Of a stretch of 64,000 bases of DNA, positions 118 to 52,135 are shown one piece after another. The notes below the pieces were generated by a model. The model saw only the letters and a program-made list of their open reading frames with translations. It was not told the DNA's origin and did no database searches. The stretch comes from Escherichia phage vB_EcoM_JB75: the sequence record MH355584.1, one strand, 5' to 3'. Position 1 is the first letter of the stretch. The number at the start of each line of letters is the position of its first letter. A program made the position numbers and the translations under genes.

Positions 118-190
118 TGGGAATTAGCCAAGTTGGTAAGGCATAGCACTTTGACTGCTAGATGCAAAGGTTCGAGTCCTTTATTCCCAG
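118..190 (+). tRNA. tRNA-Gln (anticodon UUG)
   Basis: Cloverleaf: 7-bp acceptor stem TGGGAAT/ATTCCCA, anticodon loop CUUUGAC, T-loop GGTTCGAGTCC; no encoded CCA. Confidence 0.85.
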
Positions 191-191
191 C

Positions 192-278
192 GCGAGAATG
201 GTCAAATTGGTAAAGGCACAGCACTTAAAATGCTGCGGAATGATTTCCTTGTGGGTTCGAGTCCCACTTCTCGCACCA
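192..278 (+). tRNA. tRNA-Leu (anticodon UAA), long variable arm
   Basis: Acceptor GCGAGAA/TTCTCGC, anticodon stem CAGCA/TGCTG with loop CUUAAAA, encoded CCA. Confidence 0.85.
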
Positions 279-283
279 AATTT

Positions 284-357
<74 letters not shown>

Positions 358-367
358 ATTTAATTTA

Positions 368-441
368 CTCCGTGTAGCTCAGTTTGGTAGAGCGTCTGCT
401 TTGGGAGCAGAATGTCGTAGGTTCAAATCCTGCCACGGAGA
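368..441 (+). tRNA. tRNA-Pro (anticodon UGG)
   Basis: Acceptor CTCCGTG/CACGGAG, anticodon loop UUUGGGA, T-loop GGTTCAAATCC; no encoded CCA. Confidence 0.85.
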
Positions 442-443
442 CT

Positions 444-533
444 GGAGGCGTGGCAGAGTGGTTTAATGCACCGGTCTTGAAAACCGGCAGTCGCTCCGGC
501 GACTCATAGGTTCAAATCCTATCGCCTCCGCCA
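444..533 (+). tRNA. tRNA-Ser (anticodon UGA), long variable arm
   Basis: Acceptor GGAGGCG/CGCCTCC, anticodon stem CCGGT/ACCGG with loop CUUGAAA, encoded CCA. Confidence 0.85.
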
Positions 534-538
534 GTTTT

Positions 539-614
539 GCTGATTTAGCTCAGTAGGTAGAGCACCTCACTTGTAATGAGGACGTCGGCGGTTCGATTCC
601 GTCAATCAGCACCA
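539..614 (+). tRNA. tRNA-Thr (anticodon UGU)
   Basis: Acceptor GCTGATT/AATCAGC, anticodon loop CUUGUAA, T-loop GGTTCGATTCC, encoded CCA. Confidence 0.85.
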
Positions 615-615
615 A

Positions 616-690
616 GGCCCTGTAGCTGGAAGGTTCAAGCAAGCGACTCATAATCGCCAGATGGTGGTTCAATTCCACCCAGGGCCACCA
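616..690 (+). tRNA. tRNA with CAU anticodon (Ile2-type AUA reader by analogy to T4 tRNA-Ile; Met not excluded)
   Basis: Acceptor GGCCCTG/CAGGGCC, anticodon loop CUCAUAA, encoded CCA; identity of CAU tRNAs cannot be decided from sequence alone. Confidence 0.75.
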
Positions 691-703
691 AATTAAGAAT
701 TAA

Positions 704-790
704 GGGGAGTTATCCCGTAGAGGTAGCGGTGTGGACTGTAAATCCATTGTCATTGCGACTCGGGTGGTTCGACTCCATCACTCCCCACCA
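704..790 (+). tRNA. tRNA-Tyr (anticodon GUA), long variable arm
   Basis: Acceptor GGGGAGT/ACTCCCC, anticodon loop CUGUAAA, T-loop GGTTCGACTCC, encoded CCA. Confidence 0.75.
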
Positions 791-794
791 ATTT

Positions 795-869
795 GGATGT
801 GTAGCTCAGTGGTAGAGCAGTTGACTGTTAATCAATTGGTCCATGGTTCGAATCCATGCATGTCCGCCA
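795..869 (+). tRNA. tRNA-Asn (anticodon GUU)
   Basis: Acceptor GGATGTG/CATGTCC (two G-U pairs), D-arm TAGCTCAGTGGTAGAGCA, anticodon loop CUGUUAA, encoded CCA. Confidence 0.75.
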
Positions 870-873
870 AATA

Positions 874-949
874 CGAGGCATAGCTCAGAAGGAAGAGCAA
901 GGACCTTCTAAGTCCTGGGTCGTAGGTTCGATCCCTACTGCCTCGACCA
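874..949 (+). tRNA. tRNA-Arg (anticodon UCU)
   Basis: Acceptor CGAGGCA/TGCCTCG, anticodon stem AGGAC/GTCCT with loop CUUCUAA, encoded CCA. Confidence 0.85.
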
Positions 950-24937: not shown

Positions 24938-25201
24938 ATGTTTAAAGTATATGGTTATGATAGCAACATTCATAAATGTGTGTATTGCGATAATGCAAAA
25001 CGTCTTTTGACCGTGAAGAAACAGCCGTTTGAATTTATCAACATTATGCCGGAAAAAGGTGTTTTTGATGATGAGAAAATTGCTGAGCTTCTGACTAAAC
25101 TAGGTCGTGATACTCAAATCGGCTTGACAATGCCCCAGGTATTTGCTCCTGATGGAAGTCATATTGGTGGATTTGACCAACTGCGAGAATATTTTAAATG
25201 A
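24938..25201 (+). CDS. nrdC: Glutaredoxin/thioredoxin NrdC
   Basis: 87 aa; CVYC active site; matches recalled T4 NrdC. Confidence 0.9.
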   Translation: MFKVYGYDSNIHKCVYCDNAKRLLTVKKQPFEFINIMPEKGVFDDEKIAELLTKLGRDTQIGLTMPQVFAPDGSHIGGFDQLREYFK

Positions 25202-25413
25202 TGCTCGAAGGAACTGACTATATTCATGATTACCGCGGAAGCGCGGTATATGTAGGTGATGAAGTTGCAGTTTATTATGGGTATGGAACTTTGATGACAG
25301 CCAAGGTTATTCAAATTAAAAATAATCGTGCTAAACTCGAAGTTTATTATTCTAATGGTGAAAAGTCTATTTCTAAGTGGAAATACGGCGATTGTATGGT
25401 TAAATTGGGGTAA
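25198..25413 (+). CDS. Hypothetical protein (71 aa)
   Basis: ATG overlaps nrdC stop. Confidence 0.5.
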   Translation: MMLEGTDYIHDYRGSAVYVGDEVAVYYGYGTLMTAKVIQIKNNRAKLEVYYSNGEKSISKWKYGDCMVKLG

Positions 25414-25415
25414 AT

Positions 25416-25586
25416 ATGATTTACGATATTAATGTATCAAGAACTCCGTCAATGGTTACTATTCCAGCCGAAGAACTAGATCGTCTTCAGAAAATTGAAG
25501 AGCTTCTTTGGGAAATTGAATCTGATTTGCCATCAGGATTAGAATCCTGGATTGATTATGAAGAACTTAATAAGCTTCGGGGTTAA
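25416..25586 (+). CDS. Hypothetical small protein (56 aa)
   Basis: ATG 2 nt after upstream stop; not in ORF track (<60 aa). Confidence 0.35.
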   Translation: MIYDINVSRTPSMVTIPAEELDRLQKIEELLWEIESDLPSGLESWIDYEELNKLRG

Positions 25587-25708
25587 ACCTTGGTGGGCGG
25601 CTAGATGGGAAACTGTAGAGCCAGAGCCGGAAGAACCGGTTTACACTGATGAAGAAACAGTATATAATGAACCAACGATAAATGACTTAATTGATATGGA
25701 GATGGGAC

Positions 25709-26194
25709 ATGATTACAGTAGATAAGTGGTTTAGAATTAATCGTGTTGATACAGGGCTATGTAATTACTGGCCGGAACTTAGTGCAGGTACTGTCTTTAA
25801 AGTTCGTGAACTTGCAAAAGAATGTGAAGATGATATAGAACCTGATACTGGAATTATTGAAATTGAACTTTCCGACGGAAAGATTATTAACATCTATGAT
25901 AAGCCAATTACATACTGGTGTTTGTGGAATACTGAATCCGTTGAAAATGGCGAAATTGAAGAAGTTGTAGAGAGAACTAGCCAAGATGTTCAGAAGCCTA
26001 AAGCCGCTTTTCAAGGTGAACGTATTTCATACGCATTAGCTAAATTAGCTGCGCAAGAAAATAATGATGGCTATGAAGGTAACCTGATGCAAGCTGCCGC
26101 AGAGTACATTGAATGGCTTGAAACTCAAATTTCTTTTTCTGACCAAAAGATTCGGCAATATAAGCGATTGCATCAAATGTTTTACAATACTTGA
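25709..26194 (+). CDS. pin: Protease inhibitor Pin-like protein
   Basis: 161 aa; position between nrdC and gene 49 and size match T4 pin; sequence not verified. Confidence 0.6.
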   Translation: MITVDKWFRINRVDTGLCNYWPELSAGTVFKVRELAKECEDDIEPDTGIIEIELSDGKIINIYDKPITYWCLWNTESVENGEIEEVVERTSQDVQKPKAAFQGERISYALAKLAAQENNDGYEGNLMQAAAEYIEWLETQISFSDQKIRQYKRLHQMFYNT

Positions 26195-26195
26195 A
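26149..26195 (+). repeat. Direct repeat copy a (3' end of pin)
   Basis: About 46 nt, ~90% identical to 26362-26408. Confidence 0.7.
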
Positions 26196-26230
26196 AAAAC
26201 TCAAAATTCTTTTTCTGACAGGACATTTTA

Positions 26231-26407
26231 ATGAAAACCGAATTGGTTTATACTGAAAAGTTAAATGGCGGTAAGGTTTGGAAACTTTTTATTAAAGGAC
26301 ATTCTACGGACCCTCATATGACCACTTGCGTAGGAACCTATTCTCGTCCTACTAAAAAGATGATTCGACAGTATAAACGATTGCATCGAATGTTTTACAA
26401 TACTTAA
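26231..26407 (+). CDS. Hypothetical small protein whose C-terminus duplicates the Pin C-terminus
   Basis: 58 aa; last 16 aa KKMIRQYKRLHRMFYNT versus Pin QKIRQYKRLHQMFYNT; followed by terminator-like hairpin. Confidence 0.4.
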   Translation: MKTELVYTEKLNGGKVWKLFIKGHSTDPHMTTCVGTYSRPTKKMIRQYKRLHRMFYNT

Positions 26408-26408
26408 A
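26362..26408 (+). repeat. Direct repeat copy b
   Basis: Imperfect copy of 26149-26195. Confidence 0.7.
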
Positions 26409-26449
26409 AATAATAAATACCCTTATCTATTTAAGGTAAGGGTTTTATT

Positions 26450-26923
26450 ATGTTATTGACTGGCAAATTATACAAAGAAGAAAAACAGAAATTTTATAAT
26501 GCACAAAACGGTAAATGCTTAATTTGCCAACGAGAACTAAATCCTGATGTTCAAGCTAATCACCTCGACCATGACCATGAATTAAATGGACCAAAAGCAG
26601 GAAAGATACGTGGATTGCTTTGTAATCTCTGCAATGCCGCAGAAGGTCAAATGAAGCATAAATTTAATCGTTCTGGCTTAAAGGGACAAGGTGTTGATTA
26701 TCTTGAATGGTTAGAAAATTTACTTACTTATTTAAAATCCGATTACACCCAAAATAATATTCACCCTAACTTTGTTGGAGATAAATCAAAGGAATTTTCT
26801 CGTTTAGGAAAAGAGGAAATGATGGCCGAGATGCTTCAAAGAGGATTTGAATATAATGAATCTGACACCAAAACACAGTTAATAGCTTCATTTAAGAAGC
26901 AGCTTAGAAAGAGTTTAAAATGA
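26450..26923 (+). CDS. 49: Endonuclease VII (Holliday junction resolvase)
   Basis: 157 aa; near-identical to recalled T4 gp49 (MLLTGKLYKEEKQKFY...). Confidence 0.95.
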   Translation: MLLTGKLYKEEKQKFYNAQNGKCLICQRELNPDVQANHLDHDHELNGPKAGKIRGLLCNLCNAAEGQMKHKFNRSGLKGQGVDYLEWLENLLTYLKSDYTQNNIHPNFVGDKSKEFSRLGKEEMMAEMLQRGFEYNESDTKTQLIASFKKQLRKSLK

Positions 26924-27457
26924 CAATTGAAAAAGAAATTGAAGGATTGATTCATAAAACTAATAAAGACCTTTTAAACGAGAATGCTAATAAAGATTCT
27001 CGTGTTTTTCCAACTCAACGGGACCTTATGGCTGGTATTGTGTCTAAACACATTGCCAAAAATATGGTCCCGTCTTTTATTATGAAAGCGCATGAAAGCG
27101 GAATTATTCATTTCCATGATATTGATTATTCCCCTGCTCTTCCATTTACTAATTGCTGTTTAGTAGATTTAAAAGGAATGCTTGAGAACGGATTTAAGCT
27201 TGGTAATGCACAGATTGAAACTCCTAAATCAATTGGCGTTGCTACTGCAATTATGGCACAAATTACTGCACAGGTTGCTTCTCACCAATACGGCGGAACT
27301 ACATTTGCTAATGTCGATAAAGTACTTTCTCCTTATGTTAAACGCACCTACGCAAAACATATTGAGGATGCAGAAAAATGGCAAATCGCTGATGCGTTGA
27401 ATTATGCTCAATCTAAAACAGAAAAAGACGTATACGATGCATTCCAAGCTTATGAGT
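26920..27457 (+). CDS. nrdD: Anaerobic ribonucleotide reductase NrdD, exon 1
   Basis: N-terminal NrdD sequence; frame interrupted by group I intron; 3' boundary inferred. Confidence 0.8.
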
Positions 27458-28490
27458 TAATTTAATTCAGGCTCATGTAAAACCGGTCTAAACGGGGAAC
27501 CTCTCTAGTAGACAATCCCGTGCTAAATGTTCTTTTGAACTAAATGCCTAACGACTAACCGTGATGAATGTAGCGGTGTAGAATAGAAGCTAATGCTATT
27601 CGAAACGGCCGGCATCGAAAGATGAAGATATAGTCTAATCTGCATGGCGACATGCAGCAGTCATCTTGTATAAATAAGATTATCTTATGAATACGAGGTG
27701 AAACAATGAAATGGATAAAAAGACGTTGTACTAAAATAAAAGATAAAGACGCATTTACATACTTAGTTAAGTTTTCTAATGGCGACATTTATATCGGTTA
27801 TAAAAAATTTAGAACAATTAAAAACAAGCCCACAAACTGGAAAACTTACACAACGTCATCTAAGTATATAAATGAACGCTTAAAAACTGATACACCTACT
27901 AAATGGATAATTTTAAAAACATTTGATAGTTATAAAGATGCATTAAAACATGAAGAAGAGGTCATACGTAAGTATTTTTATAGCAAAAAATGTTTAAATA
28001 AATCCATAGGCGGTAAAAAGTTTTATAAGCATCCGGATACTGAAGAACATATTCAAAAATTAAGAGATGCTCATAAGGGTAAAGTGTTATCCGAATCTCA
28101 TAAAAACAATATAAAATCTTCTGTAGCTGAATATTATGCTAAAAACGGAAGATCTAAGGAACATGTGCAAAATAATATCAATAGTCGAAAAAGTAAAAAA
28201 CAAGTATCGATAAAGCTTAAAAATAAAACTTTTAGAAGTTTTAAAAAAGCAGCGGAATATTTAAATTGCACTGAAAGTGAAGTCGAAACTCATCCTCTTG
28301 TTTTGAGTATTAAGACTACTATTCATAAAGTTCCTGAATATGTGGTTGTTGACGGTATTAAGTATACGTCTTATATAGAAGCAGCTAAAGCGCTAAATTT
28401 TCATCCTAGCACTATAAAAGAACGTTGCATATCTATGGACTATCCAAATTTTGTTGTTTCATATAAACGGGCATGAATTTGCGACTCATG
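27458..28490 (+). mobile_element. Group I intron in nrdD carrying a homing endonuclease ORF
   Basis: Boundaries inferred: if the intron is 1033 nt as recalled for T4, this is the only placement with U before the 5' splice site and terminal G that restores the frame. Confidence 0.6.
27706..28476 (+). CDS. Intron-encoded homing endonuclease, I-TevII-like
   Basis: 256-aa basic ORF entirely inside the nrdD interruption, as for T4 I-TevII. Confidence 0.8.
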   Translation: MKWIKRRCTKIKDKDAFTYLVKFSNGDIYIGYKKFRTIKNKPTNWKTYTTSSKYINERLKTDTPTKWIILKTFDSYKDALKHEEEVIRKYFYSKKCLNKSIGGKKFYKHPDTEEHIQKLRDAHKGKVLSESHKNNIKSSVAEYYAKNGRSKEHVQNNINSRKSKKQVSIKLKNKTFRSFKKAAEYLNCTESEVETHPLVLSIKTTIHKVPEYVVVDGIKYTSYIEAAKALNFHPSTIKERCISMDYPNFVVSYKRA

Positions 28491-51339: not shown

Positions 51340-51522
51340 ATGGAATTGGTAAAGGTAGTTTTTATGGGGTGGTTTAAGAACGAAAGCATGTTTACTAAAG
51401 AGATCACAATGATGAAAGATGACGTTCAATGGGCTACTACTCAATATGCTGAAGTTAATAAAGCACTAGTTAAAGCTTTCATTGATGACAAGAAGGTATG
51501 TGAAGTGGATTGCCGAGGATAA
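51340..51522 (+). CDS. dmd: Dmd-like protein
   Basis: 60 aa, first ORF after gene 41; size and position match T4 dmd (61.5); sequence not verified. Confidence 0.55.
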   Translation: MELVKVVFMGWFKNESMFTKEITMMKDDVQWATTQYAEVNKALVKAFIDDKKVCEVDCRG

Positions 51523-51523
51523 T

Positions 51524-51781
51524 ATGCATATCGTTTTATTTAAACCTACTCCGTATAATGTCAGGAAAAATACTCAATTCAAAGCACTTATTGCAGATAC
51601 GTGGGAATTAGTATTAGATATTCCGGCAGAAGAAAGCCCTCCATTTGGTCGAGTGGAATTTATTAAGTTTGCTGTGCGCCCTACAAAGCGACAGATTCGT
51701 CAATGCAAAAGATACTTTCGTAAAATCGCCAAGTTAGAGAAACAGTTTGTAACATGTGATTATGCAGAAGTTTTAAAATAA
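51524..51781 (+). CDS. Hypothetical basic protein (85 aa; T4 61.4 position)
   Basis: ATG after RBS GAGGA, 2 nt after upstream stop. Confidence 0.5.
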   Translation: MHIVLFKPTPYNVRKNTQFKALIADTWELVLDIPAEESPPFGRVEFIKFAVRPTKRQIRQCKRYFRKIAKLEKQFVTCDYAEVLK

Positions 51782-51841: not shown

Positions 51842-52135
51842 ATGAAAAAATTTATCTTTGCTGCAATTTTTGCTTTATCTTCTTGCGCTGCTCAGCCTGC
51901 TATGGCGGGTTATGACAAAGATTTGTGCGAATGGTCTATGACTGCAGATCAGACTGAAGTTGAAATTCAAATTGAAGCGGATATTATGAATATCGTTGAA
52001 CGTGATCGTCCTGAAATGAAAGCTGAAGTGCAAAAACAACTTAAATCTGGTGGTGTAATGCAGTATAATTATGTTCTGTATTGCGATAAAAACTTTAATA
52101 ATAAAAATATCATCGCTGAAGTGGTAGGTGAGTAA
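51842..52135 (+). CDS. sp: Spackle-like periplasmic protein
   Basis: 97 aa with signal peptide MKKFIFAAIFALSSCAA; size and position match T4 sp (61.3). Confidence 0.6.
   Translation: MKKFIFAAIFALSSCAAQPAMAGYDKDLCEWSMTADQTEVEIQIEADIMNIVERDRPEMKAEVQKQLKSGGVMQYNYVLYCDKNFNNKNIIAEVVGE

Follow-up and report, generated by a model that had tools for sequence, protein, structure and literature searches.

Accessory genes of T4-type phages are gained and lost by a modular shuffling mediated by early-promoter/stem-loop (PeSL) elements (Arbiol et al. 2010, PMC2839356; Comeau et al. 2014, PMC4122927), for which less than 50 bp of homology is enough for the T4 recombination machinery (PMC2839356, PMC4122927). 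The gene pin is not mentioned in these two papers. Its T4 product PinA is an inhibitor of the host Lon protease, as stated in the part of PMC8835725 that cites Skorupski 1988 and Hilliard 1998. The present analysis concerns the 3' end of pin and the 58-codon open reading frame (ORF) behind it, here called ORF58, in a 64,000-nucleotide (nt) stretch of Escherichia phage vB_EcoM_JB75 (sequence record MH355584.1), the whole of which is referred to as the window. The region in question is the nrdC - 49.x - pin - 49 - nrdD block of a T4-like phage of the genus Tequatrovirus.

As in PeSL shuffling, this locus, a hyperplastic region, gains or loses an accessory gene via flanking short direct repeats, and the right-hand repeat adjoins a promoter and a stem-loop. 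The PeSL repeats are intergenic and consist of early promoter and stem-loop, whereas those of the window are coding (a C-terminal helix and the 3' end of pin), and one outcome here, unlike in PeSL shuffling, is an in-frame protein fusion. A PeSL cassette carries a sigma70-type early promoter and a stem-loop on both sides; here only the right side has a stem-loop, accompanied by a late-type motif, and terminator and fold scans gave no promoter or stem-loop for the left repeat, which is situated within pin or at its 3' end. The rearrangement is of a sort that T-even recombination ordinarily produces and represents no new kind of biology. It provides a traceable natural case in which an accessory gene was lost, a protein fusion arose and the gene was regained via very short coding homologies, with all intermediates extant.

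ORF58, a conserved gene of the DUF7279 family, very probably donated its C-terminal tail to Pin, and the window would then hold a long pin, a relic of a short pin and ORF58 as left by a later rearrangement. The features concerned are the following.

25709..26194, + strand: pin in its long (161-aa, amino acids), putatively chimeric form, with the start MITVDKW... as in T4
Up to GAC at 26141-26143, + strand: pin codons 1-145, the Pin/Inhibitor_I24 part, ending ...EWLETQISFSD
26144-26191, + strand: pin codons 146-161 plus the TGA stop, the putatively captured DUF7279 tail QKIRQYKRLHQMFYNT, matched by PHROG and by the family hidden Markov model (HMM)
26121..26143, + strand: repeat A, the native 3' end of the Pin-domain coding sequence (AAACTCAAATTTCTTTTTCTGAC), from sequence, repeat search and shuffles
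26149..26195, + strand: repeat B, the tail-coding segment now joined to pin, from repeat search and allele comparison
26190..26199, + strand: new joint CTTGAAAAAA linking the long-pin end to the relic, from comparison with RB51/T6-type and SP1-type sequences
26197..26231, + strand: relic of a short-pin 3' end, consisting of repeat A' and AGGACATTTTAA, from identity to the SP1 short-pin end and direct reading
26231..26407, + strand: ORF58, a DUF7279 gene of 58 aa and paralogue of gp61.4, with an ATG start (Pfam PF23945, phrog_3272)
26362..26408, + strand: repeat B', the end of ORF58 that natively encodes the tail, from repeat search and allele comparison

The pin start is best placed at 25709, as the start at 25691 in the ORF listing is merely the first in-frame TTG. 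A first-pass annotation of the sequence had described the last ~46 nt of pin as recurring at 26362-26408 with about five mismatches, and a 23-nt unit as occurring both inside pin and just past its stop. Both repeats are real: B and B' are identical at 42 of 47 positions (5 mismatches), the pair extending to 63 nt at 83%, and A agrees with A' (26197-26219) at 22 of 23, with a start-to-start spacing of 76 nt and homology beginning at CTTGAA (26115). The best ungapped 47-mer and 23-mer in 200 dinucleotide-type shuffles of window positions 25600-26600 reached maxima of 31 and 19 matches, respectively, well under the observed values, and both repeats are therefore far above chance. The 58-aa ORF, which that annotation had placed between the repeat copies at 26231-26407, is likewise there with its ATG start; its C-terminus reads KKMIRQYKRLHRMFYNT, compared with QKIRQYKRLHQMFYNT in Pin. 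A 1-kb query around the locus matched 700 phage records, with 99.7% identity to Escherichia phage vB_EcoM-fFiEco06. The exact B-A' junction (26174-26226) was found at full length in 112 independent phage records, which excludes an assembly artefact.

The direction of the transfer is indicated by the Pin family itself. The window Pin matches the Pfam family Inhibitor_I24 (PF10465) with 160.8 bits (cutoff 27) over residues 4-141 of 161 only, so that the tail lies beyond the conserved Pin domain, whose profile stops at residue 141. Pin residues 147-161 instead match positions 44-58 of phrog_3272, the ORF58 family, and the DUF7279 family HMM matches the tails of both the window Pin and T4 Pin. Pins of 161 aa occur in Tequatrovirus only and are all at least 90% identical to each other; the 148-aa Pins of the same genus end in ...ETQ(I/N/K)SFSDRAF with no tail, and those of Mosigvirus, also tail-less, end in ...YLERRLS. 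At 40-50% identity the Pins end in ...FS(D/S)xxF or ...YLERRLS and the tail is absent, as it is from Dhakavirus Pins, and at 40-44%, on distant T4-like contigs, the ends are ...FSSKSF, ...FSDRGF or ...FNAKSF. On these distant contigs the neighbour behind pin is an unrelated ORF or gene 49 itself, and neither a DUF7279 gene nor the tail is present. As the distant Pins lack both the tail and a DUF7279 neighbour, the short Pin is taken to be ancestral and the tail to be foreign to Pin.

By these profile and homologue comparisons, the 161-aa Pin of T4 is a derived chimera, whose last 16 residues were captured from a DUF7279 gene and not the reverse. T4 PinA has the same 161-aa long form as the window Pin, with DNA 94.5% identical over the Pin body (25709-26143), and it differs from the Pin family domain in its last 16 residues, which correspond to the DUF7279 helix; Pins of 148 aa and of 136-144 aa without the tail are common. 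The recognition of the PinA C-terminal 16 residues as a presumptive captured DUF7279 helix is modestly new: a literature search found no paper on 'DUF7279' and none on a captured-helix origin of the PinA C-terminus. The PinA of Lon-inhibition biochemistry would thus be a natural fusion, with its last 16 residues derived from a neighbouring gene and apparently under relaxed constraint, and the natural 136-148-aa Pins would mark out the real inhibitor domain, a help in designing constructs and in structural work on Pin and Lon.

ORF58, for its part, is a complete member of its family. It matches Pfam DUF7279 (PF23945) with 62.7 bits (gathering cutoff 24.5, E 3e-17) from residue 7 to 56, covering profile positions 1-53 of 53 with the tail included, and phrog_3272 with E 3e-34. 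Full-length homologues were found by tblastn in 369 phage records. They include Tequatrovirus KIT03, JEP6, HMD-9 and SP1, Dhakavirus IME08 and QL01 (the latter with no annotated pin), Gaprivervirus VR26, Mosigvirus NBG1 and the pin-less AV114 and SHSML-52-1, and the pin-less Gelderlandvirus UTK0003. The homologues measure 57-61 aa across the five genera, and the C-terminal motif RPTK-x-(I/L)R-x-x-KR-x-(H/N)R-x-F is kept in all of those named. With pairwise ratios of non-synonymous to synonymous substitution (dN/dS) of 0.08-0.20, ORF58 is evidently under purifying selection; it is kept in five or more Tevenvirinae genera, some of the genomes having no pin. Among 1.84 billion representative proteins, a profile search gave 9 matches, 5 of them small (29-61 aa) and apparently full-length or partial family members; the four long matches, made up of multiple stretches, look spurious. 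The DUF7279-type family appears to be confined to T4-like phages. Rather than a new gene, ORF58 is a hypothetical gene of a Pfam DUF that has long been annotated, and a 'hypothetical protein' of more than 100 genomes is now tied to the gp61.4/DUF7279 family.

A second member was revealed by searching the six-frame translation of the window with the family HMM. It lies at 51524-51781 (+ strand), between dmd (51340-51522) and sp (51842-52135), is the homologue of gp61.4, and is assigned to DUF7279 by Pfam with E 2e-20. It resembles ORF58 in size class, in host phage group and in the FAVRPTKRQIRQCKRYFRK strand-helix motif (RPTK..IRQ.KR, or RPTK-x-IRQ-x-KR), and differs from it in locus (dmd-sp versus pin-49) and in length (85 versus 58 aa). 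The window thus holds two DUF7279 paralogues, ORF58 and the gp61.4 homologue, and a fragment on Pin.

AlphaFold2 modelling of ORF58 on a 10-sequence alignment (mean predicted local distance difference test score, pLDDT, 82) gave strands at residues 2-9, 15-22 and 31-37 and a helix at 42-56. In this model the C-terminal "tail" forms the helix of the predicted three-strand-plus-helix fold and is native to DUF7279. The helix, RPTKKMIRQYKRLHRMFY, is basic, and the whole protein has 12 Lys and Arg against 3 Asp and Glu, with an isoelectric point of 10.1. Fold searches gave no lead on function. In the AlphaFold2 model of the long Pin of the window, the same segment merely extends the last helix, with pLDDT below 50. 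The tail alleles were compared in a small sample of five ORF58 tails (four distinct alleles) versus five Pin tails: DNA differences among the Tequatrovirus ORF58 tails are synonymous only (CGA/CGG, CAA/CAG, AAA/AAG, TAA/TGA) and the peptide KMIRQYKRLHRMFYNT is invariant, whereas every difference among the Pin tails is non-synonymous (R to Q twice, M to K, H to N). This pattern is consistent with a helix that is constrained in ORF58 and may be a relaxed appendage on Pin.

Three architectures of the locus were found in Tequatrovirus, the single-copy arrangements among them having been foreseen by the first-pass annotation, which proposed a comparison with the pin-49 junctions of related phages. 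In the first, represented by KIT03, JEP6, HMD-9 and SP1 and seen in ~70 Tequatrovirus records (those with ORF58 DNA 90-95% identical to that of the window and annotated as overlapping pin), a short pin is followed by ORF58. Short pin, as in KIT03, ends with GAC CGA GCG TTT TAA (...FSDRAF), and its stop overlaps the ATG of ORF58 as TAATG; the same arrangement occurs in Dhakavirus. In the second (~252 records, including T4, T2, T6, RB27 and RB51), the gene-49 hairpin comes directly after a long pin, without ORF58. T4 and T2 correspond exactly to KIT03 minus the 137 nt that lie between GACCGA and ATGATT, so that ...FSDR is joined in frame to MIRQYKRLH.MFYNT. The residues at the fusion junction are RM (T4, T2), QM, or QK (window, T6, RB51), which are single-nucleotide neighbours (CGA/CAA and ATG/AAG), and one fusion event therefore suffices.

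The third architecture is that of the window, with a long pin (QK or QM), the joint CTTGAAAAAA, the 35-nt relic and an intact ORF58; RB32, RB33 and fFiEco06 are examples. It was separated from the short-pin type by a 53-nt megablast junction query, a 101-nt query having failed with BLAST pieces being joined, and its junction in 112 records points to a single event. The left part of this architecture, up to and including the pin stop, matches the long pin of RB51/T6 type, and RB51, T6 and RB27 carry a QK long pin without ORF58. The relic and the start of ORF58 are identical to the functional short-pin end of SP1 (...ETQNSFSDRTF), and the ORF58 protein is identical to that of SP1; the relic would still encode (K)TQNSFSDRTF and is no longer translated as pin. 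The joint reads as long-pin ...ACTTGAAAA followed by short-pin ...(CTTGA)AACTC. Repeat B is an ORF58-tail allele, the nearest being the HMD-9-type ORF58 tail plus non-synonymous changes. In a QM sub-variant of the window type, A equals A' over 23/23 nt and the pin 3' haplotype is SP1-like.

From these comparisons a history of three steps may be proposed. The ancestral state would have been a short pin ending in ...FSDRAF and overlapping ORF58 by TAATG. A 137-nt deletion would then have removed the short-pin stop and ORF58 codons 1-43, fusing pin in frame to the ORF58 helix to give the 161-aa Pin of T4, T2 and T6, with loss of ORF58. Subsequently, by a route that is partly resolved, a long-pin genome would have been joined with an SP1-type genome bearing short pin and ORF58, in an unequal and essentially non-homologous join at ...CTTGAAA(A)/(A)AACTC..., once only, which would have produced the window architecture and restored ORF58. 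The direct repeats so formed serve as substrates for phage homologous recombination, as natural variants show. That the deletion came first and the unequal join later restored ORF58 beside the chimeric pin is rated somewhat more likely than not.

The natural variants come from Yersinia phages PST and fPS-65, which have lost ORF58 and carry mosaics of the two tail copies. Recombination between B and B' corresponds to a 213-nt deletion that removes ORF58. The long-pin tail of fPS-65 is of B type at the first three diagnostic sites and of B' type at the last two (CAT CGA ... TAA), with the hairpin directly after it, and in PST the QK junction precedes the B' variant at all five sites, among them the TAA stop that is elsewhere peculiar to window-type ORF58. 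These mosaics imply that the repeat mediates loss of ORF58 in nature. Recombination between A and A' would delete 76 nt and give back an SP1-like short pin; SP1 could be either a product of this kind or a parent.

Comparable joints occur in Mosigvirus. In NBG1 (L006, 306-1080) the order is DUF7279a - pin - DUF7279b, pin being bracketed by two paralogues, and the pin-less AV114 and SHSML-52-1 (L009, L007) have the body of DUF7279a with the end of the DUF7279b tail, switching inside the shared CATCGT(A/G)ACTTTTATA, which is a crossover within the two tail sequences. On a metagenomic Mosigvirus-like contig (L021, 1201-1626), pin is fused in frame to the last nine DUF7279b codons (...YLERRFHRDFYNVY) with gene 49 directly after; the fusion point is an ACGTTT microhomology, and the event is independent of the Tequatrovirus fusion. 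A 191-aa DUF7279a-Pin read-through protein (P0037) was also found and could be a sequencing error. The L021 fusion and the P0037 read-through (proteins P0037 and P0038) are represented by one or two contigs each. Taken together, the helix-coding segment beside the conserved gene-49 promoter and hairpin is, to judge from the loci compared, a recurrent recombination joint.

The slot between pin and the gene-49 hairpin takes other small cassettes too. In Dhakavirus IME08 a hydrophobic ORF of ~30 aa follows the DUF7279 gene (L003, ~878-1000), and VR26 (L016, 336-605, VR26_078) and a distant contig (L017, 1946-2230, ORF94) have in common an 89-94-aa ORF that separates pin from the next gene.

Judged by the window alone, the tail is present twice with an ORF between the repeats, and T4 has a single copy and no ORF. 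The first-pass annotation had seen an insertion or duplication scar at the pin 3' end that made a new chimeric ORF with a tail copied from Pin. The rearrangement scar stands, and the new gene retains hardly any probability. As a DUF7279 member of full length, ORF58 is spread over five or more genera, pin-less genomes included, and evolves under purifying selection, and its paralogue gp61.4 has the same helix at another locus. De novo or chimeric birth would leave no homologues outside the duplication lineage, whereas they occur in 369 phage records across genera, with gp61.4 as a paralogue besides. The polarity of copying is in fact reversed, with the tail inside the DUF7279 profile and absent from the Pin family profile and from distant Pins. 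It is also very improbable that the long Pin is ancestral and that a mobile 137-nt cassette split pin, leaving the Pin C-terminus on the incoming ORF and making short pin plus ORF58 the derived state. T4 and KIT03 are formally symmetric for insertion and deletion, and the slot does accept other cassettes (VR26_078, L017 ORF94), but the 43 'inserted' codons alone would not make up the predicted DUF7279 fold and the helix belongs to the family profile. Helix-bearing DUF7279 genes moreover exist without pin in QL01, AV114, SHSML-52-1 and UTK0003 and as gp61.4, and distant T4-likes have short Pins, with a ...F end, at 40% identity. Nor does the 213-nt segment look like an autonomous mobile insertion: neither a homing endonuclease nor any other mobility gene lies within or beside it, the ORF list shows no ORF in it besides ORF58, and Pfam and PHROG searches found no nuclease or recombinase domain in ORF58.

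A route with the same polarity begins with tandem duplication of the A-ORF58-B' unit in a short-pin genome, followed by the 137-nt deletion in the first copy, T4 types then arising via recombination between B and B'. The QM sub-variant with A = A' over 23/23 nt and an SP1-like pin 3' haplotype would fit this, as would the existence of B x B' deletion products. The route is nevertheless unlikely, because 5-6 of 47 positions distinguish B from B' while A equals A', B matches an HMD-9-type ORF58 allele and not the resident B', and the RM junction, which matches KIT03 on both sides, is confined to T4-type genomes (0 of 110 full-length window-type matches). Several points weigh against the donation of the tail by ORF58 and the deletion-first history as set out above. 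The deletion and the join may have come in another order, and duplication first could give the window type. T-even genomes are mosaic, and the flanking haplotypes are uninformative on parentage, the pin body being 94-96% identical to several candidates. The PST crossover falls within 6 shared nt at the left end of the repeat, where gene conversion or an independent history is possible. The Mosigvirus pin-tail fusion is known from a single metagenomic contig, the AlphaFold2 models were built on shallow alignments (10 and 14 sequences), and expression of ORF58 is deduced from conservation only.

Whether the captured helix does anything on Pin leads to a more speculative proposal, namely that the DUF7279 basic helix is a portable functional module and that Pin and ORF58 are a functional pair, which is rather doubtful. 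The hints are that pin and DUF7279 are linked in four genera, mostly adjacent, that their stop and start overlap as TAATG or TGATG in Tequatrovirus and Dhakavirus, and, as evidence of the Rosetta-stone type, two independent Pin-helix fusions and one read-through (P0037). If the proposal were true, the captured helix would help T4 PinA to engage its target, be it Lon or another, with ORF58 and gp61.4 acting in the same host-takeover pathway.

The right-hand boundary of all these rearrangements is formed by the upstream region of gene 49, with the following two features.

26410..26451, + strand: late-promoter-like AATAAATA (26412-26419) and hairpin (core 26419-26443), from RNA folding and a terminator-like match
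26450..26923, + strand: gene 49 (endonuclease VII), the downstream neighbour, from the ORF list and relatives

A late promoter and a hairpin that sequesters the ribosome-binding site were reportedly described upstream of T4 gene 49 by Barth and colleagues in 1988. The general mechanism of sequestering a ribosome-binding site in a hairpin is known from analogous cases (PMC2988022, where the 1988 work is cited as ref. B60). In the window, AATAAATA agrees with the T4 late-promoter consensus TATAAATA at 7/8 positions, the ORF58 stop lying 4 nt upstream, and the hairpin (26419-26443; extended stem 26410-26451, including the gene 49 ribosome-binding site) has a folding energy of -18.1 kcal/mol (z -4.8). 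In position and in sequence both are conserved relative to T4. The element is conserved in all loci compared and stays intact through every rearrangement as a fixed boundary; it lies outside the window rearrangement itself and only marks its edge. Rfam reported no RNA family in the pin-49 region.

Upstream of ORF58, the relic supplies a Shine-Dalgarno AGGA (26220-26223), 7 nt before the ATG, together with the old TAATG stop/start overlap. ORF58 is uncoupled from pin translation in the window because pin stops 36 nt upstream. Given its conservation, ORF58 is most likely an expressed early accessory protein with its own AGGA ribosome-binding site. A -1 frameshift at TTTTAATG that would give a Pin-ORF58 fusion in short-pin phages was considered and set aside, since there is no proper slippery heptamer and TAATG is ordinary T4 coupling. 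A MotA box or middle promoter inside repeat A (GGCTTGA) was likewise dismissed, the -10 element being absent at the right spacing. About 40 nt upstream of the pin start, at 25640-25668 (+ strand), there is a near-consensus sigma70-type promoter (TTTACA-17-TATAAT, 11/12), which could be an early promoter for pin and ORF58.

Elsewhere in the window, ten tRNA genes were assigned by Rfam at 118-946 (+ strand), one of them marginal (706-785, 30.2 bits versus 29); T4 is usually described with eight. At 26920-28476 (+ strand) the nrdD frame stops after 181 codons (27465) and is followed by a 256-aa ORF (27706-28476), which sits where T4 has the intron-encoded I-TevII. The interruption is presumably the nrdD group I intron, and Rfam at its gathering threshold reported no group I intron at nrdD. 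The interval between nrdC and 49.1 (25198-25586, + strand) holds a 71-aa ORF (DUF7205 in related contigs) and a 56-aa ORF ('antitoxin' in RefSeq relatives) where T4 carries 49.3 and 49.2, and this content appears to be the same 49.2/49.3 exchange as in phage PST (PMC4122927).

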